NCBI GenBank assembly: GCA_964609995.1
Contig: CAZSTI010000002.1
Location: 1-54,676, forward strand
Direction: 5' to 3'
Length of the DNA: 54,676 bases
From: an uncultured Muribaculaceae bacterium
GTDB lineage: Bacteria; Bacillota_I; Bacilli_A; RF39; UBA660
This document shows positions 32,308 to 51,063 of this stretch, in pieces; positions within the stretch are counted from its first letter, which is position 1, and each line of letters opens with the position of its first letter. Position numbers and translations under genes: made by a program. The notes under the pieces are model-generated. The model was not told the DNA's origin, searched no databases, and saw only the letters and a program-made list of their open reading frames with translations.

Positions 32308-32319
32308 AACACTCCTCTA

Positions 32320-32335
32320 TGTTCCACGTGGAACA
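32320..32335. promoter_or_regulatory. parS-type ParB binding site, copy 1 (perfect 16-bp palindrome)
   Basis: TGTTCCACGTGGAACA; one position from the B. subtilis consensus TGTTCCACGTGAAACA; lies between the ffs U-tract and the tadA SD. Confidence 0.8.
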
Positions 32336-32337
32336 TT

Positions 32338-32420
32338 AAAAAATGACGTACACAAATTCTCTTAATGGGGCTGCTATCTTTCGATCCTGACCAATTAAAT
32401 TAAGGAACTTGTTACGTCAA
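32338..32420 (-). ncRNA. ffs: signal recognition particle RNA, minimal (about 80 nt, no Alu domain)
   Basis: Minus strand is one long hairpin, UGACGUA...UACGUCA, followed by U6. Apical domain IV GGUCAGGAUC-GAAA-GAUAGCAGCC matches the conserved GGUCAGGUCC-GGAA-GGAAGCAGCC of 4.5S RNA. Confidence 0.85.
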
Positions 32421-32424
32421 AATA

Positions 32425-32453
32425 AGTATAATATAATATGCATATATAATCAA
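32425..32453 (-). promoter_or_regulatory. promoter for ffs
   Basis: Minus strand TTGATT (32448-32453), 17 nt, TATACT (32425-32430), 5 nt before the first hairpin base. Confidence 0.55.
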
Positions 32454-32500
32454 ATAATTTTATTATATATATTTAACAAACATAAGCCATTAATACTTTA

Positions 32501-32516
32501 TGTTTCACGTGGAACA
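32501..32516. promoter_or_regulatory. parS-type ParB binding site, copy 2 (exact B. subtilis consensus)
   Basis: TGTTTCACGTGGAACA; the reverse complement is TGTTCCACGTGAAACA. Confidence 0.85.
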
Positions 32517-32584
32517 TAAAACAAAATAATGTATAATTAACCGTTTTTCCAAATACAAAACAAAATATGAATTTGATGTAAATA

Positions 32585-32600
32585 CGTTTCACGTGGAACA
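32585..32600. promoter_or_regulatory. parS-type ParB binding site, copy 3 (one outer mismatch)
   Basis: CGTTTCACGTGGAACA; the inner 15 of 16 positions are identical to copy 2. Confidence 0.75.
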
Positions 32601-32608
32601 TTAAAAAT

Positions 32609-32622
32609 ATTTCCCGGGAAAT
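32609..32622. promoter_or_regulatory. Noc-binding site (NBS), copy 1
   Basis: ATTTCCCGGGAAAT is an exact match to the 14-bp NBS palindrome described for B. subtilis Noc; the palindrome extends to ATATTTCCCGGGAAATAT. Confidence 0.8.
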
Positions 32623-32631
32623 ATTTTAATT

Positions 32632-32645
32632 ATTTCCCGGGAAAT
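32632..32645. promoter_or_regulatory. Noc-binding site (NBS), copy 2
   Basis: ATTTCCCGGGAAAT exact; 23 bp centre-to-centre from copy 1; 25 bp downstream of the gyrA stop. Confidence 0.8.
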
Positions 32646-32669
32646 ATAAAGCAGGAAAAATAATTGGTT

Positions 32670-37159: not shown

Positions 37160-38269
37160 TTATTGTTTTTTTATAATTTTTTGATTATTAACAAAATATA
37201 TATTTCCTTTTTTTATCAAACTTGCACTTATGTTATTGATTTCAGTAGTAGTAATAAAGGTTTGTATATCTTTTTTTATATACTTAAGCAGGTTGTTTTT
37301 TTTATTTTCATCTAATTCACTAAATATATCATCAAGTAGTAATATCGGATATTCTTTAGTAGTTTCTTTTATTATCTCAATTTCCCCTAACTTCATGCAA
37401 ATTACTATAATTCGTTGTTGTCCTTGAGAAGATTGCTCTTTTACTTCAATATTGTTAATGAAAAACGTTATATCATCTCTATGTGGTCCATAATAAGTCA
37501 TTCCAAGAAAGTTATCTCTTTTTATATTGTTTTTTAATTTATTGAATAGTATTTTTTCAATATTTTCTTGATTATAGTTATCTATTTCTATGTTTGTTTT
37601 ATATTTAATTACAAGTTCTCCTTTTCCAAAAATATTTTTGTATATTTTTTTTGAGTTTTCATTAATTCTATTTACAAATTGATTTCTTATAACAATAATT
37701 GAAGCTCCTTTTTTAGAAATCTGCTCATCAATAATTGAAATATAATTTAAATCTATATCCTTAAATAATTTGTTTTTTATATATTCGTTTCTATTTTTTA
37801 CAAGTAAATTATATTCGTTTAACAAAGTTAAATAGTTATTATTAATTTGACCTATTTCAATATTTAAATATTTTCTTCTAATTGATGGATTACCCTTTAT
37901 AAGTTCCAAATCATTTGGATAAAATATTATTACATTAAGTTTTGAAATATAATTACTTATTTTTTTTATTGTTTGATTATTAATTTTAACATTTTTACCT
38001 TTATAATTAAGTAATATTTCAAATTTGTTAATGTTATTCTTTGATTCAACAATTCCTTTTATTTTAGAAAACTGTTTATCGTTTTTTAGTAAGGATTTAT
38101 CCATACTTGTTCTATGAGATTTGGTGATAGCCAAAAAATATATACTTTCTAATACATTCGTTTTTCCTTCAGCATTATTTCCATAGAATATATTGACATT
38201 GTTTGAAAAAGACAAATGCAAACTATCATAATTTCTAAAATTTATTAATTCTAATTCTTTTAATATCAT
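37160..38269 (-). CDS. recF: DNA replication and repair protein RecF
   Basis: N-terminal Walker A GNNAEGKTNVLE, signature SQGQQR, Walker B ILLLDDIFSELD. Confidence 0.94.
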   Translation of the reverse strand: MILKELELINFRNYDSLHLSFSNNVNIFYGNNAEGKTNVLESIYFLAITKSHRTSMDKSLLKNDKQFSKIKGIVESKNNINKFEILLNYKGKNVKINNQTIKKISNYISKLNVIIFYPNDLELIKGNPSIRRKYLNIEIGQINNNYLTLLNEYNLLVKNRNEYIKNKLFKDIDLNYISIIDEQISKKGASIIVIRNQFVNRINENSKKIYKNIFGKGELVIKYKTNIEIDNYNQENIEKILFNKLKNNIKRDNFLGMTYYGPHRDDITFFINNIEVKEQSSQGQQRIIVICMKLGEIEIIKETTKEYPILLLDDIFSELDENKKNNLLKYIKKDIQTFITTTEINNISASLIKKGNIYFVNNQKIIKKQ

Positions 38270-38275
38270 ACAAAC

Positions 38276-39622
38276 CTATTTTCCTAAACAAAAATTATTA
38301 AAAATTTCATCAACTAGTTCTTCGTTATAATTCTTTCCTATTATTTCTCCCAAAAGCTTCCAAATTTCTAATATGTCTATTTCTAATATATCTACTGGCA
38401 TATTATTTATTAATCCTTTTTTTATTTCGGAAATATTTTCTAATGTTTTTTTAAGAGTTGAGATTTGCCTTGTGTTAAACAAATAATTTGGATCCTTTTT
38501 ATTTATATTTTCTATGTTAAACATTTCAATTAGTTTGTTTCTTAAAGGTTCAATGTTATTATTCAAGGCACTTATCTCTACTACGTTTCCTATTAATAAT
38601 TTTCTATCTAATTTGCTTTCTAAATCAATTTTATTTATTACTATTATTCTATTATTATCTTTTGTTAAATTTAATAACTTTATGTCTGCTTTTTGTATTT
38701 TTTTATTATTGTCAAATACTAAGATAACAACATCAGCTGTATCAATTAATTTAATCGATTTTGAAACACCAATTCTTTCTATTGTATTATTTGTTTCTCT
38801 TATTCCTGCGGTATCAATAATATTAAATAAAACAGACTCTATAACTATTGTTCCTTCAACAAAGTCTCTTGTAGTACCAGGTATGTTTGTTACTATTGCT
38901 TTTTCTTCACCTATAAGTTTATTTAATAGGCTGCTTTTTCCTACATTTGGTTTGCCTAATATGATTGTGTTGATTCCATCTTTTATTATTCTTGAATTTT
39001 CTGATTCTTTAATTATTTTATTTATTTCTTCTTCTAATATTATTATCTCTTTTTTTATTAATTTATTAGTTATTACCGTAATGTCTTCATATTCAGGATA
39101 ATCAATATTTGCTTCAATATTTGCAAGTATTTTTGATATTTTATTTCTTAAGTTTTCTATCATTAAAGTAACGTTTCCATTTAATCCATTAATTGCTAAT
39201 TTTCTAGCACTTTCACTTTTTGAATTTATAAGATCCATTATTGATTCTGCTTCAATTAAATCAATTCTTCCATTTAAAAAAGCTCTTTTTGTAAACTCTC
39301 CGGGTTCTGCTAACCTGGCTCCATTTTTAATTAATATTTCTAATATCTTTTTTGTAGTTGTAATTCCACCATGGCAATTAATTTCTACTATATCTTCTCT
39401 TGTATAAGTTTTAGGAGCTTTCATTACACTGACTAAAACTTCATCTATTGATATGTTGTTTTCTAATATATGACCATAATGTATTGTATGAGAATCAACT
39501 TTTGAAATATTTTTTGTAAATATATTATTTAAAATTTCGAAAGAATCTTTTCCACTCATTCTGATTATAGCTATTGCTCCAATACCAAGAGATGAAGATA
39601 TTCCTACAATTGTGTCTTCCAT
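38276..39622 (-). CDS. mnmE: tRNA modification GTPase MnmE
   Basis: G domain GKPNVGKSSLLN, DTAGIR, NKIDL; C-terminal FCLGK. The track start is a GTG inside the SD GGGTGAT, so I chose the ATG at 39622. Confidence 0.95.
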   Translation of the reverse strand: MEDTIVGISSSLGIGAIAIIRMSGKDSFEILNNIFTKNISKVDSHTIHYGHILENNISIDEVLVSVMKAPKTYTREDIVEINCHGGITTTKKILEILIKNGARLAEPGEFTKRAFLNGRIDLIEAESIMDLINSKSESARKLAINGLNGNVTLMIENLRNKISKILANIEANIDYPEYEDITVITNKLIKKEIIILEEEINKIIKESENSRIIKDGINTIILGKPNVGKSSLLNKLIGEEKAIVTNIPGTTRDFVEGTIVIESVLFNIIDTAGIRETNNTIERIGVSKSIKLIDTADVVILVFDNNKKIQKADIKLLNLTKDNNRIIVINKIDLESKLDRKLLIGNVVEISALNNNIEPLRNKLIEMFNIENINKKDPNYLFNTRQISTLKKTLENISEIKKGLINNMPVDILEIDILEIWKLLGEIIGKNYNEELVDEIFNNFCLGK

Positions 39623-39667
39623 AAATATCACCCAATCTAATTATAACAAAAAAAAAGAGATTAATCT

Positions 39668-40282
39668 CTATTCTTTTCTTTTAATAACAATATATCTTTC
39701 GGGTTCTTCTCCAATTGATTCGGTTGTAATACCATGGATGTTACCACAAATGTTGTGAACATTTCTTCTTTCATATGAATTCATTGGATCTAACGTTACA
39801 GGTATTCCGGTTTTTTTAACTTCATATGCAATATTTTTAATATTTCTCTCAATATTTATTTGTTGTTTCTCTCTATATTCTTCTATATCAATTATTATAT
39901 TAACTTTAAACCCAGTATGATTTTGAATAGAACTTCTTAAAATTGTTTGTAGAGAATCAAGGGTTTTTCCATTTTTACCAATAAGAATTGCATTATTGTT
40001 AGATATCAAATTTAATTTAATAAAATCTTCTCTTTTTTTTGCTTCTATTTTTATTTCTAATCCCATTTTTTGGACTATATCATTAATTAAATCTTTTGAA
40101 TATTCAATAATATCATCTTTTAATATTACTTCAATTTTTGCTTTTTTGGATTTAAATAATCCACCAGTTGTTTCTTCGCTTTCCTTAATTAAAATATCTT
40201 TTTCTGAAACTTCAAGTTCATATAACATCTTTTCTTTTGCAACATCAAGATTTTTTTCTAAATATTCATGTACTTTAATCAT
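39668..40282 (-). CDS. jag: RNA-binding protein Jag/KhpB (Jag_N, KH, R3H)
   Basis: KH GKNGKTLDSLQ and R3H ...YERRNVH... motifs; yidC-jag pairing. Confidence 0.9.
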   Translation of the reverse strand: MIKVHEYLEKNLDVAKEKMLYELEVSEKDILIKESEETTGGLFKSKKAKIEVILKDDIIEYSKDLINDIVQKMGLEIKIEAKKREDFIKLNLISNNNAILIGKNGKTLDSLQTILRSSIQNHTGFKVNIIIDIEEYREKQQINIERNIKNIAYEVKKTGIPVTLDPMNSYERRNVHNICGNIHGITTESIGEEPERYIVIKRKE

Positions 40283-41297
40283 TATTAACTCCTTTTTTTA
40301 CAACAATATTTTGTAATATCGTAAATATATTTGAAGATATCCAATAAATACTTATTGCACTAGCCATTGAAAACGACATAAATATTATCATTACAACAAA
40401 TACTGTATTCATTATATTCATTTGTTTTTGATTATCTAAATTTGATGGAGCTCCTTTGTTTAACTTAAATGATAAATATGTTATTACTCCAAGTAAAATC
40501 ACTATTATTATATACCACCAAGCACCTTTTTGAATAGCTATCAATGGTGTCATTCCTAATTTAAATCCAAGTAAGCTTCCTTCAAATATTGCTGGTGTTC
40601 TGTTAATTGCTTCTATAAATGCAAACAATAAAGGAATTTGTATAATTGCAAATAAGCAACTAGACATGGGATTAATTTTGTATTTTTTGTATATAGCCAT
40701 TGTCTCTTGACTTTTTTTCATAAGAGATTCTTGGTCACTTTTTCCTTCATATTTTTTTTCAACTTTTTTAATTTCTGGTTGAGCAATTTTAATGTTTTCT
40801 GATTGCAATGCAGTACTTTTTGTAACAGGTAATAAAATAATTCTTATTAAAATACTAATTATTACTAAAGATATACCATAGTTATTTAAAATGTTTCCCA
40901 ACTTTAATATTAACCATGCCAAAGGTTTAACAAAAAATGTATCCCATAAACCTTCATATTCTCCGCTAGATATTTTATATTCATCACATTCTTGTAATTT
41001 GTTTAAATCAACATTATTGTTTTCATAAATTTCCATTACATCTTTATTAGTAGGTTTACATAGAATATTTTCAGTCAAAGTTTGACCAGTTTCATTTTCT
41101 TTTGCAATATCGCATTTTTCTATACACTCTGTTAGACAATCATCTTTATTTTCTTCTTTTTCGCAAGAAAAATCACAAGTTTCACAAATATAACCCGCTT
41201 CGTATTTGATTGGTTTTTTATCTTTATCTACTAGTGTTTTTGAACACCCAGTAAATACTAATAACATCAATATTATAAGAATTATTTTTTTGTACAT
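40275..41297 (-). CDS. yidC: membrane protein insertase YidC (lipoprotein type) with Cys-rich N-terminal extension
   Basis: Lipobox LVFTGC, then an ~85-aa Cys-rich segment. After that comes the 60-kDa-IMP core: ISLVIISILIRIILLP, a basic loop, and PLLFAFI.... Confidence 0.9.
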   Translation of the reverse strand: MYKKIILIILMLLVFTGCSKTLVDKDKKPIKYEAGYICETCDFSCEKEENKDDCLTECIEKCDIAKENETGQTLTENILCKPTNKDVMEIYENNNVDLNKLQECDEYKISSGEYEGLWDTFFVKPLAWLILKLGNILNNYGISLVIISILIRIILLPVTKSTALQSENIKIAQPEIKKVEKKYEGKSDQESLMKKSQETMAIYKKYKINPMSSCLFAIIQIPLLFAFIEAINRTPAIFEGSLLGFKLGMTPLIAIQKGAWWYIIIVILLGVITYLSFKLNKGAPSNLDNQKQMNIMNTVFVVMIIFMSFSMASAISIYWISSNIFTILQNIVVKKGVNND

Positions 41298-41305
41298 ATT
41301 TTCTC

Positions 41306-41626
41306 CTATATTTTATTTAATAATATCATTAATTCACGTTCTTTTTCTTTATAATCTAAGTCAACAACTCTTTTTCTTAACATTATTATATAATCATATA
41401 TTTTAATTTTTTCTGTGTTATTATCTAAAATACTTTTTGTTTGTCTTTTTAATTTATTTCTAATAATTGCTTTTCCTATTTTCTTTGGAACAGAAATACC
41501 TATTCTGTATTTGTTTTCTTTGTTTAACATATAATATATATTATAGTATTTATTATTAATAAATAATCCGTTTTTTATTATGTTATCGAAGTCTTTATTA
41601 GATTTTACAATATTTATTTTTTTCAT
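41306..41626 (-). CDS. rnpA: ribonuclease P protein component
   Basis: 106 aa; KAIIRNKLKRQTK is the RNR motif; rpmH-rnpA order. Confidence 0.92.
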   Translation of the reverse strand: MKKINIVKSNKDFDNIIKNGLFINNKYYNIYYMLNKENKYRIGISVPKKIGKAIIRNKLKRQTKSILDNNTEKIKIYDYIIMLRKRVVDLDYKEKERELMILLNKI

Positions 41627-41669
41627 TGTATTTACCTTACTTCATAACAAAAAAACACATTGAGGTGTT

Positions 41670-41798
41670 TTATTTTGTCAATTTCTTTCTTTGTTTTTTT
41701 CTTCTAGAAGCTACCACTCCGGTATCGGCTTTTTTTCTTGCTAAAAAACCATGAGTTTTTTTCGCTTTTAACTTATTTGGTTGGTATGTCCTTTTCAT
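41670..41798 (-). CDS. rpmH: 50S ribosomal protein L34
   Basis: Not in the track (42 aa). My translation is [42 protein letters not shown]; SD CAGGAGGAA 6 nt upstream. Confidence 0.95.
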
Positions 41799-41932
41799 TG
41801 TAATTCCTCCTGTCTTTAAATCAATATAATTATAATTGTAATAGCACCAAAAGTCAATTAAAATGTTATTAACATATTAACAGCTTATTTAATAAATATA
41901 ATTGGTTGTTAATAAGATTGTTATAGAAAATT

Positions 41933-41941
41933 TGTGGATAA
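41933..41941 (-). promoter_or_regulatory. DnaA box (perfect TTATCCACA)
   Basis: Plus strand reads TGTGGATAA. Confidence 0.8.
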
Positions 41942-41976
41942 CTACTGTTTTATTGTTTTAATGCTACGATAAAACA

Positions 41977-41985
41977 TGTGGATAA
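41977..41985 (-). promoter_or_regulatory. DnaA box (perfect TTATCCACA)
   Basis: Plus strand reads TGTGGATAA, 44 bp from the first box, same orientation. Confidence 0.8.
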
Positions 41986-42086
41986 GTATGTTAATATTTT
42001 GTTATTTACCTATTTTTGTTTAATTTTTAATAAAAATGATTTACAATAGTAGTGTAATTAAGAAAAATATCAAGGAGAATGGAATT

Positions 42087-43436
42087 ATGGATGAAAAAGA
42101 TCTGTGGATAAATTTTTTGAATTTAATTAAAGAAAAATTAGTTCCAATTGCTTTTGATGCATGGTTTAGTGAAACAAGACTTCATAAAGTTGAAAACAAA
42201 AAAATGTATATTATTGTTCCAATGAATTTACATAAAAAAAATTTGTCAGAGACTTATTATGATATTATAAAAGATAATATGAATAAGTTGACAGGGACTA
42301 ATTTTGAATTCGAATTTTTATTAGAAGAAGAAATTAATGATAAAAAAATAGATAAAGTTGAAGAAGGAGTTCCTTTTAATAATCCAATTCAGGCAAATCT
42401 AAATTCTAATTATACATTTGATACATTTGTAATTGGAGAAACAAATAGAATGGCTTTTACGGCATCTTTTGCAGTTGCTGAAAGACCTGGAAAAGCCTAC
42501 AATCCTTTGTTTTTATATGGAAGTAGTGGTTTAGGTAAAACCCATTTAATGCATGCAATAGGAAATTATATAGTTAGTGAAACCAATAAAAAAGTATTAT
42601 ATATAACAAGTGATAAATTTAAATCTGATTTTATATCTATAAATAAAAGAAAACATGATGAAAACAATATTGATAACGTAGAATCATTTAAAAATAAATA
42701 TAGAAATATTGATGTTCTTATTGTAGATGATATACAATTTTTAGCAGGTGCTACAGAAAGTCAAACAGAATTTTTTCATACCTTTAATGAATTACATCAA
42801 GAAGGTAAACAAATAATTATTTCATCTGATAGATCACCAGATGATTTAAAATTACTAGAAGAAAGATTAAGAACTAGATTTAATTGGGGATTAGCAGTAA
42901 ATATTTTTCCTCCAGATTATGAATTAAGAATTGAAATTTTAAAGAAAAAAATTAGTGCTCACGAAGTTGCTAAGCCTATTTCTGAAGATGTATTAATATT
43001 TATTGCTAACAATTGTACTTCTGATGTAAGAAAATTAGAAGGAGCATTAAATAGATTATTTGCGTATACTGTAATGTTTAATAAAGAAAAAATTGAAATT
43101 GATGTTGCAAAAGAAGCTTTAAGTGATTTTTTGAACTCAAACTCATATATTAAAAATAATATACAAAAAATACAAAAAATAGTATGTGATTATTATCAAA
43201 TTACTATAGAAGATATGAATTCAAAGAAAAGAAATAATAATTTTGTACTTCCTAGACAAGTTGCGATGTACTTAGCAAGAAATTTAACTGAAGAGAGTTT
43301 TCCAAGAATAGGAATTGAATTTGGAGGAAGAGATCACACAACAGTTATTCATGCATGTAATAAAATTGAAGAAGAAATAAAAAAAGATAAAGATTTTAAA
43401 AGTTCAATAGATCTGTTGAAAAAGAAACTTAAATAA
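42087..43436 (+). CDS. dnaA: chromosomal replication initiator protein DnaA
   Basis: AAA+ GSSGLGKTHLMHAIGN, DDIQFL, C-terminal DNA-binding GGRDHTTVIHA. I chose the ATG at 42087 behind AAGGAGAA over the track start at 42036. Confidence 0.96.
   Translation: MDEKDLWINFLNLIKEKLVPIAFDAWFSETRLHKVENKKMYIIVPMNLHKKNLSETYYDIIKDNMNKLTGTNFEFEFLLEEEINDKKIDKVEEGVPFNNPIQANLNSNYTFDTFVIGETNRMAFTASFAVAERPGKAYNPLFLYGSSGLGKTHLMHAIGNYIVSETNKKVLYITSDKFKSDFISINKRKHDENNIDNVESFKNKYRNIDVLIVDDIQFLAGATESQTEFFHTFNELHQEGKQIIISSDRSPDDLKLLEERLRTRFNWGLAVNIFPPDYELRIEILKKKISAHEVAKPISEDVLIFIANNCTSDVRKLEGALNRLFAYTVMFNKEKIEIDVAKEALSDFLNSNSYIKNNIQKIQKIVCDYYQITIEDMNSKKRNNNFVLPRQVAMYLARNLTEESFPRIGIEFGGRDHTTVIHACNKIEEEIKKDKDFKSSIDLLKKKLK
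42103..42111 (-). promoter_or_regulatory. DnaA box (perfect) inside the first codons of dnaA
   Basis: Plus strand reads TGTGGATAA, encoding LWI at codons 6-8. Confidence 0.6.
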
Positions 43437-43483
43437 TGTTAATAAATAATTTAAAAGATTATAATTAATAAGGTATAATTAAG

Positions 43484-43492
43484 TTATCAACA
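43484..43492 (+). promoter_or_regulatory. imperfect DnaA box in the dnaA-dnaN spacer
   Basis: TTATCAACA (1 mismatch) inside a 104-bp nearly pure A/T spacer, the position of the second oriC half and DUE in Bacillus-type origins. Confidence 0.35.
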
Positions 43493-43540
43493 ATATTAAC
43501 TATAATAATAAATATATAAAAAAAGAAAGGAATATTAATA

Positions 43541-44659
43541 ATGAATTTTATAATTAAAAAAGAATTACTTTTAGAAAATTTAAATAATGTATCAAAAGCT
43601 ATTTCAAATAAAAATATAATACCTATATTAGGAGGTATTAAATTAGATTTAAAAGAAGAAGGATTATATTTAACTTGTAGTGATAATGAAATAACTATAA
43701 GATCTTTCATTGAAAAAAAATATATTGATAAAATAAATAATAATGGAAGTATTGTTATAATTGGAAGATATTTTATAGAATTAATTAGAAAAATACCTAG
43801 TGAATTAATTGAAATTATTACTGATGGTTTGAATTTAACAATTAGTACAATCAATGGTGAATATAATTTAAATGGAATGAATCCAGAAGAATTTCCAGAT
43901 AAATCATTAGAATTATCACCAAAACCAATAAAAATAGATAAAAATGTAATAAAAAATATAATTTTTCAAACATCTTTTGCAATTTCAAATCAAGAATCAA
44001 GACCAATATTAACAGGAATTAATTTTAAAATAAAAGATAAAATTATAGAATGTGTTGCAACTGATTCATATAGATTATCAAAAAAAACAATATCCATTGA
44101 TGAAAAAATTGAAGAAGAAGTTAACTTAGTAATCCCAGGTAGAAATTTAATTGAATTATCTAAAATAATAAACGAGGAAAATGAAAAAATTGAAATGCAT
44201 ATTTTTTCAAATAATGTTTTATTTAATTTTGATAATATAATGTTTCAAACTAGATTATTGAATGGTAATTATCCAGACACAACAAAATTAATTAAAATAG
44301 AACCAACATTAAAATTAAAAGTAAATACTGAAGATTTATATAACGCAATAGATAGAGCTTCATTATTAACCTCTGAGAAAGATAAAAATGTTATAAATAT
44401 GGAAATAAATAATAAAGAAATAGTAATTAGTTCAACTTCTCAAGAAATAGGTAAAATAGAAGAAAGAATTAATGTAGAAAAAGATAATAACCTTTCTATG
44501 AATATTTCTTATTCATCAAAATATATGATGGAAGCATTAAGAACTATAAAAAGTGAAAATACTTTTATTTTATTGAGTGGTGAAATTAAACCAATCATTT
44601 TAAAGTCAACTGAAGAAGATAATTTAATTCAGTTAATTGTTCCAATAAAAACTTTTTAA
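43541..44659 (+). CDS. dnaN: DNA polymerase III subunit beta (sliding clamp)
   Basis: 372 aa; typical MNFIIKKELL..., three-domain length, directly after dnaA. Confidence 0.95.
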   Translation: MNFIIKKELLLENLNNVSKAISNKNIIPILGGIKLDLKEEGLYLTCSDNEITIRSFIEKKYIDKINNNGSIVIIGRYFIELIRKIPSELIEIITDGLNLTISTINGEYNLNGMNPEEFPDKSLELSPKPIKIDKNVIKNIIFQTSFAISNQESRPILTGINFKIKDKIIECVATDSYRLSKKTISIDEKIEEEVNLVIPGRNLIELSKIINEENEKIEMHIFSNNVLFNFDNIMFQTRLLNGNYPDTTKLIKIEPTLKLKVNTEDLYNAIDRASLLTSEKDKNVINMEINNKEIVISSTSQEIGKIEERINVEKDNNLSMNISYSSKYMMEALRTIKSENTFILLSGEIKPIILKSTEEDNLIQLIVPIKTF

Positions 44660-44717
44660 TTTATATTGATTAAATTATATATATAAAGTATAATTTGTTT
44701 TCGAATTGGGTGATATT

Positions 44718-46532
44718 ATGAATTATGAAGTAATTGTTGTTGGAGGAGGACATGCGGGATGTGAAGCGGCTTTGGCTACTTCGCGTTTATTTCATAATAC
44801 TCTATTAATAACTGGAAATTTTGATATTGTCGCTCAAATGCCATGTAATCCTTCTATTGGAGGAAGTGCAAAAGGAATAGTAGTTAGAGAAATTGATGCT
44901 TTAGGTGGGGAAATGGGTAGGTGTGCAGATAAAACACTTATTCAAATGAAAATGTTAAATACAGGAAAAGGTCCTGCTGTAAGAAGTTTAAGATGTCAAG
45001 CAGATAAAGTTACATATCCAAAAGAAATGTTAAAAACATTAAAAAATCAATCTAATTTAGATTTAATTGAAAATATGGTCGAAGATTTAATAATAGAAAA
45101 TAATGAAGTAAAAGGAATAATATTAGAAAATGGTAATAAAATATATTCTAAAATAGTAATACTTACTACAGGAACTTATTTAAAAAGTGATATATTAGTT
45201 GGAAATATAAGAACAAGAATGGGCCCAATGGAACAAAAACCATCGTTATATTTAAGTGATAACTTAAAAAAATATGGTTTTGAAATTATTAGATTAAAAA
45301 CAGGCACTCCTCAAAGAATTGAAAAATCTTCAATTGATTTTTCAAAAACAAAAGTTGAACAAGGATCCCCAGAAGAATTTACTTTCAGTTTTGATAATAA
45401 AGTATATTATGATGTTAAAAAACAGATACCATGTCATTTAGTACACTCTACAAAAGAAACAAAACAAATTATATTAGATAATTTAAGTAAATCAAGTATA
45501 TATGGAGCTATAGAAGAAAAATTAGGAATTGGACCAAGATATTGTCCTTCTTTTGAAGATAAAATAGTAAAATTTGAAAATAAAGATACTCATCAAATCT
45601 TTTTAGAACCCGAAAGTTTATATTATGATGATATATATTTGCAAGGATTTTCTACAAGTATGCCAAAAGAAGTTCAAGATAAACTAGTTCATAGTTTACC
45701 AGGGTTAGAAAATGCAATTATTAATAAATATGCTTATGCTATCGAATATGATGCAATAAATCCTACACAATTAAAAAACAATCTTGAAACAAAAATAATT
45801 AATAATTTATTTACTGCTGGTCAAATAAATGGAACTAGTGGTTATGAAGAAGCTGCTTGTCAAGGATTAATGGCGGGGATCAATGCCGTTTTTAAACTAG
45901 AAAATAAGGAACCTTTTGTATTAACAAGAAATGAAGCGTATATTGGAGTATTAATTGATGATTTAATAACAAAAGGAACAAATGAACCATATAGGCTATT
46001 AACATCAAGAGCAGAATATAGACTTTTATTAAGGCACGATAATGCTGATTTAAGATTAATGGAATATGGCTATAAAATAGGACTTATTGAAGAACAAAAA
46101 TATTTAAAATTTATGAAAAAGAAACAAAATATTGAAGAATTAATTGTAAAAATCAAAAAAATAAAAGTAAATTCAAAGGAAACAATATATGAATACTTAA
46201 AGCACCCAGAATCAAATATTTATTCTGTAATTAATTTATTTGATAAAAAATATTCTAATGAAGAACTAGAACAAGTAGAAATTATTGTAAAATATGAAGG
46301 ATATATTAAAAAAACAGCAAAAAACGCAGAAAATATGTTAAAACTCGAATATAAAAAAATACCTGAAGACATAGATTATAATCAAATTAAAAACATAGCA
46401 ACTGAGGCAAGACAAAAATTAATTAAAATAAGACCTAAATCTATTGGTCAAGCTACTAGAATAAGTGGAGTAAACTTATCGGATATATCTGTATTATTAG
46501 TATATATGAAAAGGTATTTTAAAAATGAATGA
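44718..46532 (+). CDS. mnmG: tRNA uridine 5-carboxymethylaminomethyl modification enzyme MnmG
   Basis: FAD motif VIVVGGGHAGCEAA, GPRYCPSFEDK, QINGTSGYEEAA. The track start is a TTG, so I chose the ATG at 44718 behind GGGTGAT. Confidence 0.96.
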   Translation: MNYEVIVVGGGHAGCEAALATSRLFHNTLLITGNFDIVAQMPCNPSIGGSAKGIVVREIDALGGEMGRCADKTLIQMKMLNTGKGPAVRSLRCQADKVTYPKEMLKTLKNQSNLDLIENMVEDLIIENNEVKGIILENGNKIYSKIVILTTGTYLKSDILVGNIRTRMGPMEQKPSLYLSDNLKKYGFEIIRLKTGTPQRIEKSSIDFSKTKVEQGSPEEFTFSFDNKVYYDVKKQIPCHLVHSTKETKQIILDNLSKSSIYGAIEEKLGIGPRYCPSFEDKIVKFENKDTHQIFLEPESLYYDDIYLQGFSTSMPKEVQDKLVHSLPGLENAIINKYAYAIEYDAINPTQLKNNLETKIINNLFTAGQINGTSGYEEAACQGLMAGINAVFKLENKEPFVLTRNEAYIGVLIDDLITKGTNEPYRLLTSRAEYRLLLRHDNADLRLMEYGYKIGLIEEQKYLKFMKKKQNIEELIVKIKKIKVNSKETIYEYLKHPESNIYSVINLFDKKYSNEELEQVEIIVKYEGYIKKTAKNAENMLKLEYKKIPEDIDYNQIKNIATEARQKLIKIRPKSIGQATRISGVNLSDISVLLVYMKRYFKNE

Positions 46533-47226
46533 AATAGAATTTATAAATAATTTAAAAGAACTTAATATAGAAATTAACGAAATTCAGCTAAAACAATTAA
46601 AAGAGTATTGTGATTTTTTAATAGAATATAATAATAAAATTAATCTTACCTCAATAAATAGTATAAAAGACATATATTTAAAACATTTTTTTGATAGTTT
46701 AACATTGAATAAAGCAATCAATTTAAAAAAAATAAGAAACTTATGTGATGTAGGAACTGGTGCTGGTTTTCCAGGCATAGTAATTAAAATATTATTTCCA
46801 AATATTGAATTGACTTTAATAGAATCAACTAATAAAAAAACTATTTTTTTGAAAGAATTAGTTAATAAACTTAATATTAATGTTGAGATTATTAACAAAA
46901 GAGCAGAAGAATATTCAAAAACATGCAAAAACAGGTTTGATTTAGTAACATGTAGAGCTTTATCAAAATTAAATATTATATCTGAAATTTGTATTCCTAT
47001 GGTAAAAATAGGAGGATATTTTATTCCAATGAAGAGTGAAATAAAAACTGAAATTGAAAATACTGAATATTTAAAGTTATTAAATAGCAAAATAGAAAAA
47101 ATTTACGAATTTAATTTACCAATTGAAAATAGCAAAAGATCATTGATAGTAATAAAAAAATATAATAATTGTGATGATAAATTCCCAAGAAGTTATAAAA
47201 ACATTGTTGAAAAACCATTAAAATAG
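46525..47226 (+). CDS. rsmG: 16S rRNA (guanine527-N7)-methyltransferase RsmG
   Basis: DVGTGAGFPGI SAM motif; 8-nt overlap with mnmG; classic mnmG-rsmG pair. Confidence 0.95.
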   Translation: MNEIEFINNLKELNIEINEIQLKQLKEYCDFLIEYNNKINLTSINSIKDIYLKHFFDSLTLNKAINLKKIRNLCDVGTGAGFPGIVIKILFPNIELTLIESTNKKTIFLKELVNKLNINVEIINKRAEEYSKTCKNRFDLVTCRALSKLNIISEICIPMVKIGGYFIPMKSEIKTEIENTEYLKLLNSKIEKIYEFNLPIENSKRSLIVIKKYNNCDDKFPRSYKNIVEKPLK

Positions 47227-47294
47227 AAAAACATTGTTTTTTTTGTTATTTTTTAGTATTATATTAAATATAAGAATATGAGGGTGTAATTATT

Positions 47295-48620
47295 ATGAAT
47301 GATGAATTAGAAAAAGAAATTAAAGAAATATTTTTAGATGAAATAATTCCAAATAGGTTTCAACCTAGATTGAATTTTGATCAAAAATCATTGATGGAAT
47401 TAGCGGATTCAATTAAGCAACATGGAATAATACAACCTTTAGTAGTAAGAAAATTAGGAGAAAAATATGAAATAATTGCGGGAGAAAGAAGATATAAGGC
47501 ATCTCAAATAATTGGTTTAAGTAAAGTTCCTGCAATCGTTGTTGATTTAGATGATAATAAAAGTGCTGAAGTAGCAATAGTAGAAAATCTTCATAGAAAA
47601 AATATGTCTGCACTAGAAGAAGCAAAGTCATATAAAAAATTACTACAAAGAGGAATTACTCAAGAACAATTAGGAATTAGTTTAGGGAAAAGTCAATCAT
47701 ATATTGCGAACAAGTTAAGACTACTATCTTTAGATGAGAAAGTTCAAGAAGCATTAGTGAGGGAAGAAATATCTGAAAGACATGCGAGAAGTTTACTTTC
47801 AGTTAAGGATAACATAGAACAACAAAAGATGTTAAACGAAATAATAAGTAATAAACTTACAGTAAAAGCAACTGATGATATTATTAAAGAAAGATATGGT
47901 ATTCAAGAATTAGAGGAAGATGTAACGCAAAATAATCTTAATAAGACGAACGAAGAGAACGTAACCAATATTAATAATGGACCTGCTGAAATTGTCCAAA
48001 CACAACCAATACCAAATACTATAATGAATTTTAATTTAGAAACTCTTGAATCCGATGAAGACGAAACACAACCAATAATTAATACTCCGAAACCTTTTGT
48101 ATATCAAGAATTTAAAGAAGAACCAAAAGATCAAAAAGCTGAACCTCATAATAATTATGAAAAAAATCCTCAAATGGATATAATAAATAGGTTAAGTAAT
48201 ATTGAAAACGATACAGATTTAAATCTTTTTAAAGAATCAAATTTAGCTAATCCTAGCCCTTATGTAATTCCTAGAAAAGATATTAAAGATAATTATTTAA
48301 CACCACAATCTAATTATGCGCAATCTCAAACATTTGAAATTAATGATAATCAAACACAACAAAATCCTTCTGGATTTGATATTAATAAATTATTAGAATC
48401 AGATAAAGAACAAAGTAACACACAAGAAGAATTATTTACTCAAAATAGATTTATTATTAATGGTGAAGAAAAACAAAAGCCAGATAATTTTAATATATTG
48501 AATTCAAAAAATATTATAAAGAAAACTATTGATACTATTCAAAATAGTGGAGTAAAAATCGATTATGAAGAATTTGATTTTGAAAGATTATATCAAATAA
48601 TAATAAAAATAGATAAATAG
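47295..48620 (+). CDS. noc: ParB-family protein of the Noc (nucleoid occlusion) subtype with a long low-complexity insert
   Basis: ParB N-domain IIPNRFQPR, CTP-binding IIAGERRYKAS, HTH GKSQSYIANKLRLLSL, ISERHARSL, and C-terminus TIQNSGVKIDYEEFDFERLYQIIIKIDK. The C-terminus resembles remembered B. subtilis Noc (...VEDSGVKLNTEEEEFEEYIQLTIRIPK). Directly follows rsmG as noc does in Bacillus. Confidence 0.8.
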   Translation: MNDELEKEIKEIFLDEIIPNRFQPRLNFDQKSLMELADSIKQHGIIQPLVVRKLGEKYEIIAGERRYKASQIIGLSKVPAIVVDLDDNKSAEVAIVENLHRKNMSALEEAKSYKKLLQRGITQEQLGISLGKSQSYIANKLRLLSLDEKVQEALVREEISERHARSLLSVKDNIEQQKMLNEIISNKLTVKATDDIIKERYGIQELEEDVTQNNLNKTNEENVTNINNGPAEIVQTQPIPNTIMNFNLETLESDEDETQPIINTPKPFVYQEFKEEPKDQKAEPHNNYEKNPQMDIINRLSNIENDTDLNLFKESNLANPSPYVIPRKDIKDNYLTPQSNYAQSQTFEINDNQTQQNPSGFDINKLLESDKEQSNTQEELFTQNRFIINGEEKQKPDNFNILNSKNIIKKTIDTIQNSGVKIDYEEFDFERLYQIIIKIDK

Positions 48621-48645: not shown

Positions 48646-49242
48646 ATGAAAAAAAATGGATTTACTTTAATTGAAGTTTTGGCAGTTTTAATTATTATTA
48701 TGATATTAATAACTATTACTGTTCCAATATTAAGTGGTAAAATGGAAGAAACTAAAACAAAAGCTGCTGAAGCACAAATAAAAAATATTGAAATTGCAGC
48801 CAAAAAATATGTAACAGATAATATAAGAGATTTAGATGAATTAAATAGATTTGGTTTTATGAACGTAAGTTTAAAGACACTAATTGATAATAATTACATT
48901 GGTGCAAATATAAAAAACCCAATGAATAATGAAACATTATTTATTGATGACAATGTTTATATAACCTTAGATTATAATAATAATATAAAAACCAATTATG
49001 ATATTAATCAAAAAAACAAGGCTGCAATTACACTAAAGGGTTTTTATAATGACAAGGTAAAATTAGGAACACCATATGTTGATCCAGGAGCAATAGGGTT
49101 TGATGGTACAAACACTAATTCAAATGTTTTAGCATTTTCGGGCAGCGTAGATACATCAAAAGAAGGGATATATGTTTTGAAATACTATTATCAAACATCA
49201 AATATAATAGAGAGAAACGTAATTGTTACTGATGATATGTAA
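48646..49242 (+). CDS. prepilin-type N-terminal cleavage/methylation domain protein with one C-terminal Ig-like (DUF5011-type) domain
   Basis: MKKNG|FTLIEVLAVLIIIMILITI is a class III signal with Glu+5. The C-terminal ITLKG...LGTPYVDPGA.GFDG....V..SGSVDTSKEGIYVLKY fits the DUF5011 pattern. Confidence 0.75.
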   Translation: MKKNGFTLIEVLAVLIIIMILITITVPILSGKMEETKTKAAEAQIKNIEIAAKKYVTDNIRDLDELNRFGFMNVSLKTLIDNNYIGANIKNPMNNETLFIDDNVYITLDYNNNIKTNYDINQKNKAAITLKGFYNDKVKLGTPYVDPGAIGFDGTNTNSNVLAFSGSVDTSKEGIYVLKYYYQTSNIIERNVIVTDDM

Positions 49243-49258
49243 TTTTTAAGGAGTAAAT

Positions 49259-50110
49259 ATGAAAAACAAGGGATTCACTTTGATAGAAACTTTAGGAGTT
49301 TTAATATTATTAGGTGTATTAATTACAATATTGATAGCTATAGTTGATGAAGATTTAAATTATGGAAAAAGTTTTGCATCTGATGCACAAGTAAATTTAA
49401 TTGAAGAATCTGCAAATATTTATTATCAAAATTACAAGGCTGAAATACCCACAATAGGTATAAATAATATTGCAATTATTACTGTTCAAACATTATTTGA
49501 TAAAGGTTTTATTGATGATAAAGACTTAGTAATAAATACAAAACTTACTATTGAAAAAACAGATAAAGTAATATTATATCTAATAGATGGGGAAATATAT
49601 ACATTGTATGATAAAGAACAGAGAACAGAACCTATAATTGTATTAAAAGGACCTTCAGAGATTAAAATAAATATAAATGGAAGTTATTATGAGTACGGGG
49701 CCTTGGTAATTGATTCGACAAATATTACAATTAATAATTTAGATCCAATAAATATTACAGGAAGTGTCAATTCAAACGTTGAAGGTGAATACGAAATTAC
49801 ATATAGTTACGCTACATCTGATCAAGTTAAAAGAAAGGTAATTGTGGAAGATACAATTATAGAATCAGATACACAAAAACCAGTAATAACTTTAGTCGGA
49901 TCTAGCACAATATCTTTATTAGTAGGAAATACATATAATGAACAAGGCGCGATTGCTATAGATAACAAAGAAGGAGATATCTCAGCACGAATAACAATAA
50001 CAGGAGTAGTAAATACTTCTTCAAAAGGAACCTATTATAGATATTATGATGTGTCCGATGTTAATGGTAATAAAGCTGATACAATAACTAGAACAATTAA
50101 TGTTAATTAA
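49259..50110 (+). CDS. prepilin-type N-terminal cleavage/methylation domain protein with two Ig-like (DUF5011-type) domains
   Basis: MKNKG|FTLIETLGVLILLGVLITI; second repeat KPVITLVGSSTISLLVGNTYNEQGAIAIDNKEGDIS..ITITGVVNTSSKGTYYRYYDVSDVNGNKADTITRTINV. Confidence 0.75.
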   Translation: MKNKGFTLIETLGVLILLGVLITILIAIVDEDLNYGKSFASDAQVNLIEESANIYYQNYKAEIPTIGINNIAIITVQTLFDKGFIDDKDLVINTKLTIEKTDKVILYLIDGEIYTLYDKEQRTEPIIVLKGPSEIKININGSYYEYGALVIDSTNITINNLDPINITGSVNSNVEGEYEITYSYATSDQVKRKVIVEDTIIESDTQKPVITLVGSSTISLLVGNTYNEQGAIAIDNKEGDISARITITGVVNTSSKGTYYRYYDVSDVNGNKADTITRTINVN

Positions 50111-50592: not shown

Positions 50593-51063
50593 ATGAAAAA
50601 AAGAGATATAGAAGTTAACAAGTTAACTTACCAAGATATTGCCTATAATATTATAAAAGAAGACAATGAACCAAAAACCACACTAGAATTGTTTAAGGAA
50701 ATATGTATGTTGCTTCAATTAGAGGAACAAAAATATCAAGAAGTAATCGGAGATTTTTATACAGCATTAAATTTAGATAAAAGATTTCACTTATTGGAAA
50801 ATAAAAAGTGGGACTTAAAAGAAAAACATCCAGTAGGAACAATATTAGATGATGATGATTTAGACGATATGGAAGGATTAGACTTAATAGATGATTATGA
50901 AATCGATGATGAAGATGATGAAGAAATTGAACCAGAAGAAGAAGAAATCGATGACGAAATAATTGATGAAGATGACGAAATATTAGACGAAGAAGAAATA
51001 TCTGAAATAGAAGATTTGACTATTATTGATGAAGAAGAATTAGAGTCAGACGATATTATATAA
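50593..51063 (+). CDS. rpoE: DNA-directed RNA polymerase subunit delta
   Basis: N-terminal HARE-HTH-like domain (...IGDFYTALNLDKRFHLLENKKWDLKEKHP) followed by an ~80-aa Asp/Glu tail, as in Bacillus RpoE. Confidence 0.88.
   Translation: MKKRDIEVNKLTYQDIAYNIIKEDNEPKTTLELFKEICMLLQLEEQKYQEVIGDFYTALNLDKRFHLLENKKWDLKEKHPVGTILDDDDLDDMEGLDLIDDYEIDDEDDEEIEPEEEEIDDEIIDEDDEILDEEEISEIEDLTIIDEEELESDDII

Follow-up and report, generated by a model that had tools for sequence, protein, structure and literature searches.

What becomes of a Noc protein when it carries no membrane-targeting helix? The question is raised by a ParB-family gene at positions 47295–48620 of the plus strand of contig CAZSTI010000002.1 (54,676 nt; "the window" hereafter means this whole stretch of DNA). 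A first-pass annotation made from the sequence alone had described its product as an atypical Noc with an acidic N-terminus, a low-complexity insert and mixed specificity residues, and had raised both a relaxed or dual specificity and a Noc repurposed without membrane tethering. We show that the protein is a Noc orthologue and consider it probable that it acts as a CTP clamp loaded at Noc-binding sites (NBS), gives its output through motifs in a long linker, does not bind the membrane directly and leaves parS to a separate ParB.

Orthology and Domain Anatomy

The gene encodes 441 amino acids followed by a TAG stop and begins 68 bp after rsmG, which ends at 47226. An in-frame TAA (47271–47273, plus strand) lies eight codons ahead of the ATG and, together with the end of rsmG, leaves no possible upstream start, as had been read from the frames. 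A Shine-Dalgarno-like GAGGGTG (47280–47286, plus strand) is placed 8 nt ahead of the ATG, and a promoter and terminator scan around the gene gave matches at chance level only. The gene does stand in the noc position proposed for it, and the order mnmG-rsmG-noc is also found in relatives.

Three domains were recognised, all on the plus strand. A ParB N-terminal, CTP-binding domain (residues 8–100; 47316–47594; PF02195, E = 1e-32) is followed by a helix-turn-helix DNA-binding domain of the HTH_ParB type (residues 103–199; 47601–47891; PF17762, E = 5e-30), and the protein ends in a Noc-type dimerisation domain of one helix and two strands (residues 401–441; 48495–48617; TIGR04285); Pfam gave no match in residues 200–441. 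The motifs for CTP binding and clamping are intact, with GERR (G63–R66) and the E97, N98 and R101 of ENxxR invariant across 78 homologues. GERR and E97/N98 align with R88/R89 and E120/N121 of Noc, and mutating these in Noc abolishes CTP binding or clamp closure.

The best NCBIfam model was that for Noc (TIGR04285), which matched with 277.4 bits in two stretches compared to 166 bits for the generic ParB model. When residues 401–441 were scanned alone they matched the last 41 positions of TIGR04285 (215–255; E = 4e-5), confirming the suspected likeness of the C-terminal end to Noc, and homologue alignments revealed a conserved EEFDFExxYQxxIK in this domain. An AlphaFold2 model built on a 78-sequence alignment had a predicted local distance difference test (pLDDT) score of ~90 over residues 6–201, including the CTP-binding domain, and of 81–91 over residues 401–441. 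Its best structural match was the apo Noc of Geobacillus thermoleovorans (7nfu; template modelling score, TM, 0.79; root-mean-square deviation 2.7 Å), and the DNA-binding domain matched that of the Noc–NBS complex 6y93 with a Foldseek TM of 0.89–0.90. Sequence matches in the PDB ranked likewise, with three Noc entries at 190, 190 and 175 bits and every ParB at or below 161 bits.

A neighbour-joining tree (196 columns, 100 bootstraps) of 12 members of the window's clade, two Bacillales Noc, two clostridial Noc-type proteins and four ParB proteins recovered the clade as monophyletic in 100 of 100 replicates, placed it as sister to Bacillales Noc in 92 and separated all Noc-type proteins from ParB in 74, which goes some way towards the phylogeny against ParB and Noc that the annotation called for. 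The nearest genome is a metagenome-assembled genome (MAG) labelled 'Mycoplasmatota bacterium AS09scLD_189', whose orthologue has 79% identity to the window protein.

The closest known system is therefore the Noc of Bacillus subtilis, G. thermoleovorans and Staphylococcus aureus (TIGR04285; 7nfu, 7ng0, 7ol9, 6y93), with which the window protein shares ~51% identity over its first 200 residues, the ParB N-domain with its CTP motifs, the C-terminal domain and the place after rsmG. Chromosomal ParB/Spo0J proteins (TIGR00180; 6sdk, 1vz0, 6t1f) have the same fold and CTP-clamp architecture, with 43–46% core identity and conserved ParB boxes, and differ in lacking the Noc-type C-terminal domain. The protein is not a categorically new system.

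The N-Terminus and the Membrane Anchor

In B. subtilis Noc an amphipathic N-terminal helix of ~10 amino acids (MKxSFSRFFG type) is needed for function (Adams 2015; Jalal 2021), and Adams et al. (2015) found this helix in all Noc homologues they examined. The first 11 residues of the window protein (MNDELEKEIKE) instead carry a net charge of -3. In the HMMER alignment to Noc structures residue 3 falls opposite residue 24 of B. subtilis Noc, so that the protein starts at about Noc residue 22–24; both the membrane-targeting helix alpha1 and the Noc-specific alpha2 (for their roles in Noc see PMC4331003 and PMC8429893) are therefore absent. The acidic N-terminus without a basic amphipathic helix described by the annotation is thus upheld.

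A missed start or frameshift hiding the helix was rejected on account of the in-frame TAA, the 68-bp gap to rsmG and the short N-terminus in essentially all relatives. Among the 120 nearest database homologues and 43 metagenome relatives, 13–22 residues precede the PNRFQPR box, compared to 33–41 residues bearing a M..FS.(I/F)F motif in canonical Noc from the same metagenome scan, and no amphipathic N-terminus was found among the 120. Three apparent exceptions (P0047, L039 and L072) have longer called N-termini with the usual start motif at an internal methionine (MNNNMEKEIF in P0047), and these look like extensions introduced by the calling of open reading frames (ORFs).

The helix has also not moved elsewhere in the protein. 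A hydrophobic-moment scan in 11-residue windows, the amphipathic-helix check that the annotation had proposed, detected no cationic amphipathic segment at the N-terminus or in the linker, no window joining a high moment with positive charge; a relocated membrane-targeting helix was rejected on this basis. B. subtilis Noc can neither bind the membrane nor function without its N-terminal helix, so the window protein, which lacks it, probably makes no direct membrane contact. For a Noc-type gene that keeps the rsmG-noc position and lacks the helix, the reading as a Noc repurposed without membrane tethering is still reasonable.

A Helix-Less Noc Subfamily

The unusual traits of the protein are not peculiar to it. 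The 120 nearest database homologues range from 287 to 541 amino acids, and the metagenome scan returned 49 complete Noc-type ORFs that fell into two classes. The first comprised 43 AT-rich, helix-less ORFs of 326–650 amino acids with QK[N/S/A/T/G/Q]R at the four specificity positions treated below. The second, canonical Noc with a M..FS.(I/F)F N-terminus, included four of the six QKKR ORFs (283–290 amino acids) and two GC-rich QKQR ORFs (L096 and L098; 316 and 335 amino acids) that had been counted with the 43. The remaining two QKKR ORFs (L103 and L104; 266–270 amino acids) have short N-termini that lack the motif. One further ORF of 220 amino acids was probably cut short. Between the HAR motif and the C-terminal motif the linkers of the subfamily measure 143–356 residues.

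In total the subfamily holds more than 100 sequence clusters from gut and digester metagenomes, from AT-rich uncultured Bacilli (MAGs named 'Mycoplasmatota bacterium' or 'Bacilli bacterium'). The missing helix, the QKxR signature and the long linker are traits of this whole subfamily, so each of the features that had marked the gene as an atypical Noc is real and none is a one-gene oddity, the 120 homologues and 43 metagenome relatives being alike. Searches of open-access text turned up no account of Noc proteins that form a helix-less or long-linker subfamily. What is new is the large helix-less clade with its conserved linker motifs; Noc as a CTP clamp was already known.

Three MAGs with close orthologues (L008, L009 and L012) are titled 'uncultured Muribaculaceae bacterium', a title that seems to reflect either a wrong taxonomic label or wrong binning of the contig.

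An Acidic, Disordered Linker With Conserved Motifs

Residues 201–400 (47895–48494, plus strand) form an acidic linker with a charge of -21 and an isoelectric point of 4.2, rich in N, E, Q, I, P and T. Compared to Noc, with its short linker, this adds ~165 residues, and the Noc linker is basic in B. subtilis. The insert is real, since the identical 441-residue protein is encoded in two independent Logan assemblies (SRR8925774 and SRR8925725) and 15 orthologues are collinear with it throughout the linker; an assembly or sequencing artefact, the refutation that the annotation had allowed for, was rejected on the same grounds. In the AlphaFold2 model residues 204–400 mostly fell below a pLDDT of 50, which agrees with the predicted disorder, and the only confident helix (residues 292–301) lay in the only block with a mean pLDDT as high as 76. 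A known domain hidden in the linker was rejected as the 196 residues alone gave no Pfam or NCBIfam match even at E = 10. The linker gave a dN/dS of 0.37 against the 79%-identical orthologue, where the N-terminal half gave 0.02 and the C-terminal domain 0.11.

An alignment of 16 sequences with 53–80% identity (alignment A1) has 11 linker residues that never vary, and these are grouped in six motifs, all on the plus strand. Motif 1 (IMNFNLE; residues 243–249; 48021–48041) is followed by motif 2 (INxPKPF; residues 262–270; 48078–48104), in which conservation reaches at least 90% at P265, P267 and F268, and by motif 3 (EPHxNxExNPQxxLINxLS; residues 282–302; 48138–48200), which contains the helix at 292–301 and in which P284, N291, P292 and Q293 are invariant. 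Motif 4 (SPYVxPxxDIxDxY; residues 321–337; 48255–48305) has invariant P322, Y323, V324, P326 and I330, motif 5 (FDINxLL; residues 360–367; 48372–48395) has F361 and I363 conserved in at least 90%, and motif 6 (QNRFII with a QNRFI core; residues 383–388; 48441–48458) has invariant N384 and F386. Relaxed versions of the motifs occurred in 15–54 of 98 distinct family linkers compared to 0.1–6 in shuffled linkers, counts that come from related sequences and measure conservation, not independent recurrence. A loose pattern for motif 1 was found in 42 of the 98 (6 expected), motif 2 in 19 (0.9 expected), D[IV][NDS]x[LIM][LIMW] for motif 5 in 37 (1.4 expected) and [NPQG][RK]F[ILMV] for motif 6 in 54 (2.9 expected). 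Given a dN/dS of 0.37 together with invariant motif residues, the linker is best described as a disordered acidic spacer that evolves fast around short motifs kept under constraint. Of the low-complexity insert first described, the disorder and the N/E/Q/P/T-rich composition stand; with six cross-species motifs it is not plain low complexity.

The linker is where a classical nucleoid occlusion role would have to find its membrane link, either through a cryptic element such as the helix at 292–301 or through a docking motif for a membrane or divisome protein. Orthology to Noc and the retained gene position favour such a role, and relatives encode penicillin-binding protein, MraY-like, SpoIIR and BofA genes, so the lineage appears walled and FtsZ-dependent septation is therefore expected. 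The conserved, amphipathic-looking NPQxxLINxLS helix is, moreover, the one structured element of the linker. However, this helix is set in a strongly acidic context with no cationic flanks and a net charge of -1, the moment scan recovered no positively charged linker segment of high moment, the NBS of the window sit at one origin-proximal spot and are not scattered, and the partner remains hypothetical. On this evidence we judge a retained occlusion role unlikely.

Still less credible, in our assessment, is a functionally neutral linker, expanded by the composition of a 26% GC genome and leaving a short Noc-type protein on a longer tether. Linker length is very variable (143–356 residues in ORFs of 326–650 amino acids), the N/E/Q/K-rich composition is what AT-rich codons would give, pLDDT is low and dN/dS is 17 times that of the N-terminal domain. 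That ratio is nevertheless well below 1, 11 invariant residues in six motifs persist across 16 sequences as divergent as 53% identity, and motifs 1, 5 and 6 reach the wider family far above shuffle expectation.

Specificity Residues and Chromosomal Sites

Alignment to the Noc of G. thermoleovorans and B. subtilis placed the specificity residues of the window protein at Q134 (47694–47696), K140 (47712–47714), S145 (47727–47729) and R162 (47778–47780), all on the plus strand. HMMER alignment to Noc structures equated them with positions 173, 179, 184 and 201, and so the Q, K, S and R first mapped by eye were correctly assigned. The protein therefore has the Q173, K179 and R201 equivalents of Noc and differs from it in having serine for lysine at 184; it differs from ParB/Spo0J in having Q and R in place of R173 and G201. 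Of the 120 nearest homologues, 116 matched QK[N/G/S/A/T/V]R; the remaining four escaped the pattern and read QKNR by eye, and no lysine was found at position 184 among the 120.

According to Jalal et al. (2020; PMC7383237), one lysine at 179 or 184 suffices for NBS-specific reading by Q173 and R201. In their data R173 is found in every parS-specific variant, position 201 of dual-specificity variants is T or S in most cases, and R173 and G201 are invariant in ParB orthologues. On this rule QKSR is predicted to be NBS-specific.

The window holds matching sites of both classes, all between the stop of gyrA and the start of tadA (32308–32669). Two perfect 16-bp NBS of the B. subtilis type (TATTTCCCGGGAAATA; 32608–32623 and 32631–32646, no strand assigned), lying in tandem 7 bp apart, are the predicted loading sites of the window protein. 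Three parS sites (at 32320, 32501 and 32585, within 32320–32600, no strand assigned) are the predicted targets of a separate canonical ParB not encoded in the window; the parS search gave seven strand-specific matches compared to 1.1 expected. No hybrid parS/NBS sites were found in the window.

Both classes recur in relatives. The gyrA-tadA intergenic regions of L035 and L036 each contain three or four parS and one perfect 14-bp NBS core, and the more distant L037 has two parS in the equivalent region and a perfect NBS 2.5 kb away. Since NBS and parS are kept in all three, both site classes are under selection, as expected of two proteins that each recognise their own class.

Several features of this region were noted besides. 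An origin-proximal spot predicted to load both ParB and Noc would be unusual. The four parS of L036 are embedded in 47-bp tandem repeats, and in the window the stretch of the parS/NBS array that separates the first parS from the second contains a gene for a bacterial small signal recognition particle RNA (RF00169, 44.3 bits; 32330–32428, minus strand). Over 37160–47226 the origin region of the window is arranged differently from that of B. subtilis, with rnpA-yidC-jag-mnmE-recF-gyrB-gyrA on the minus strand, running away from dnaA, and dnaA-dnaN-mnmG-rsmG-noc on the plus strand. L037 retains the order dnaA-dnaN-recF-gyrB-gyrA, with a comK-like gene inserted.

Soj and Spo0J in Related Genomes

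A tblastn search of the window returned one ParB-family gene only and no Soj, in agreement with the annotation; unlike in Bacillus, no soj or spo0J follows the gene, none being found within the 47 kb upstream or 6 kb downstream. The same was seen in eight clade loci, where the 10 kb on either side of the orthologue contained neither soj nor a second ParB gene, and a genome scan returned only the noc-like locus of four related MAGs.

In the wider subfamily, however, many members carry both. A Soj gene was present in the same locus in 16 of the 43 complete helix-less metagenome relatives; soj and an R..G-type spo0J adjoin the noc-like gene in 13 (L042, L059, L061, L063, L065, L071, L073, L074, L076–L078, L085 and L088), and in three (L044, L049 and L051) the pair lies ~8 kb from it. 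All eight downstream ParB genes that were read encode canonical Spo0J, with an N-terminus that begins ..RRALGKGLEELF and GKSRSxITN...MGHAR (R173, G201). These true paralogues have an ALGKGLEELF N-terminus, whereas the window protein, which begins MNDELEKEIKEIF, contains no LG(R/K)GL peptide of the kind that stimulates ParA/Soj, has no adjacent parA/soj and has Q134 and R162 where R173 and G201 would be. No parS (up to three mismatches) was found in the fetched loci of 13 of these 16 relatives (all but L051, L073 and L074), so their parS must lie elsewhere in the genome, as in the window's clade.

The absence of soj-spo0J beside the gene is thus correctly described and reflects the gene order of the clade; it is no evidence of a genome-wide absence, as the relatives show. 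As Noc of this subfamily coexists with a full ParABS system in relatives and the parS arrays are conserved, the organism very probably encodes a separate ParB outside the 54.7-kb contig.

A single dual-specificity ParB/Noc, serving as the sole ParB-family protein of the genome and binding both parS and NBS for segregation plus occlusion-like roles, would account for the lone ParB-family gene in 54.7 kb, for parS and NBS side by side and for a non-lysine at 184, and 82 of 362 strong NBS binders are recorded as dual-specific by Jalal et al. (2020). It is nevertheless very improbable, as the protein has Q where parS binders have R173 and has R at 201 where dual variants mostly have T or S, NBS-specific binding takes no more than one lysine, parS and NBS form discrete classes that are each conserved, QKxR is subfamily-wide and coexists with canonical Soj and Spo0J, and the ParA-interaction peptide is missing.

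Proposed Mode of Action

The mode of action that we favour, a helix-less Noc acting as an NBS-loaded clamp, would run as follows. By homology, the protein would be a dimeric, CTP-dependent DNA clamp of the ParB type that dimerises through its Noc-type C-terminal domain. It would nucleate on NBS (TATTTCCCGGGAAATA), Q134 and R162 reading the site and K140 supplying the one permissive lysine, and the clamp would then close and slide onto flanking DNA. Its loading sites would include the NBS pair ~15 kb away, beside the parS cluster near the origin. Output would most likely pass through the 200-residue acidic disordered linker, the six motifs of which are candidate docking sites for one or more partner proteins, and segregation at parS would most likely fall to another, canonical ParB whose gene lies outside the window, whether accompanied by Soj or not.

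Several points weigh against this reading. The TIGR04285 score of 277 bits is below the curated NCBI cut-off of 315 bits, with the match split by the insert, and the neighbour-joining tree has few anchors, its B. subtilis Spo0J sequence having been entered by hand. The specificity of QKSR is drawn from the general rule of Jalal et al. (2020), established on a Caulobacter ParB scaffold. NBS are rare, with four in 852 kb of AT-rich relatives and most noc-like loci lacking any, so other sites, or a very thin scatter of them, may serve the wider subfamily. The evidence on the subfamily consists of sequences and a predicted structure, the docking of partners by the linker motifs is wholly conjectural, and a canonical ParB or Soj of this organism is likewise a prediction, the coverage being one 54.7-kb contig.

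The model of how Noc works was built on Bacillales proteins. The helix-less subfamily, with its single permissive lysine among the specificity residues, presents a natural 'N-terminal deletion' Noc that is under purifying selection, and its existence implies that a ParB-type CTP clamp can have an output independent of the membrane. In the window's own clade perfect NBS are kept as well. The linker motifs could be used as baits in a search for partners. Labels such as 'nucleoid occlusion protein' or 'partition protein' are not safe for such genes from domain content alone.

Clostridial Noc-type paralogues offer a further comparison. Those of Aminipila (L010, 9944–10744) and Senimuribacter (L011, 9926–10780) lie in rsmG-noc-soj-spo0J operons and, like the window protein, have QK[S/T]R, no evident MKxSFSRFF-type N-terminus and a place after rsmG. 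They differ in their length of 266–284 amino acids, in the lack of an expanded linker and in having soj-spo0J immediately downstream, and in the neighbour-joining tree they branch outside the group of Bacillales Noc and the window's clade. It may be that only Bacillales-type Noc carries the membrane-targeting helix. We tentatively raise the further idea that helix-less Noc is a separate functional class, a clamp loaded at origin-proximal NBS beside parS and acting through linker docking motifs and not the membrane. If so, direct membrane tethering would be a Bacillales innovation, and an ancestral or alternative job of Noc, such as organising the origin region or recruiting division or replication factors, would still be there to be discovered.

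Flanking Genes

Directly 3' of the noc-like gene, two plus-strand genes (48646–50110) encode a prepilin-type N-terminal methylation motif and a bacterial Ig-like surface domain. This pair is syntenic in L005 and L007 and occupies the place that soj-spo0J has in Bacillus. Further downstream, a plus-strand gene (50593–51063) encodes a 156-residue protein with an extremely acidic, D/E-rich C-terminal half and no Pfam match at E < 0.01. Its N-terminal part (FYTALNLDKRF...W.L) presumably resembles the RNA polymerase delta subunit RpoE.

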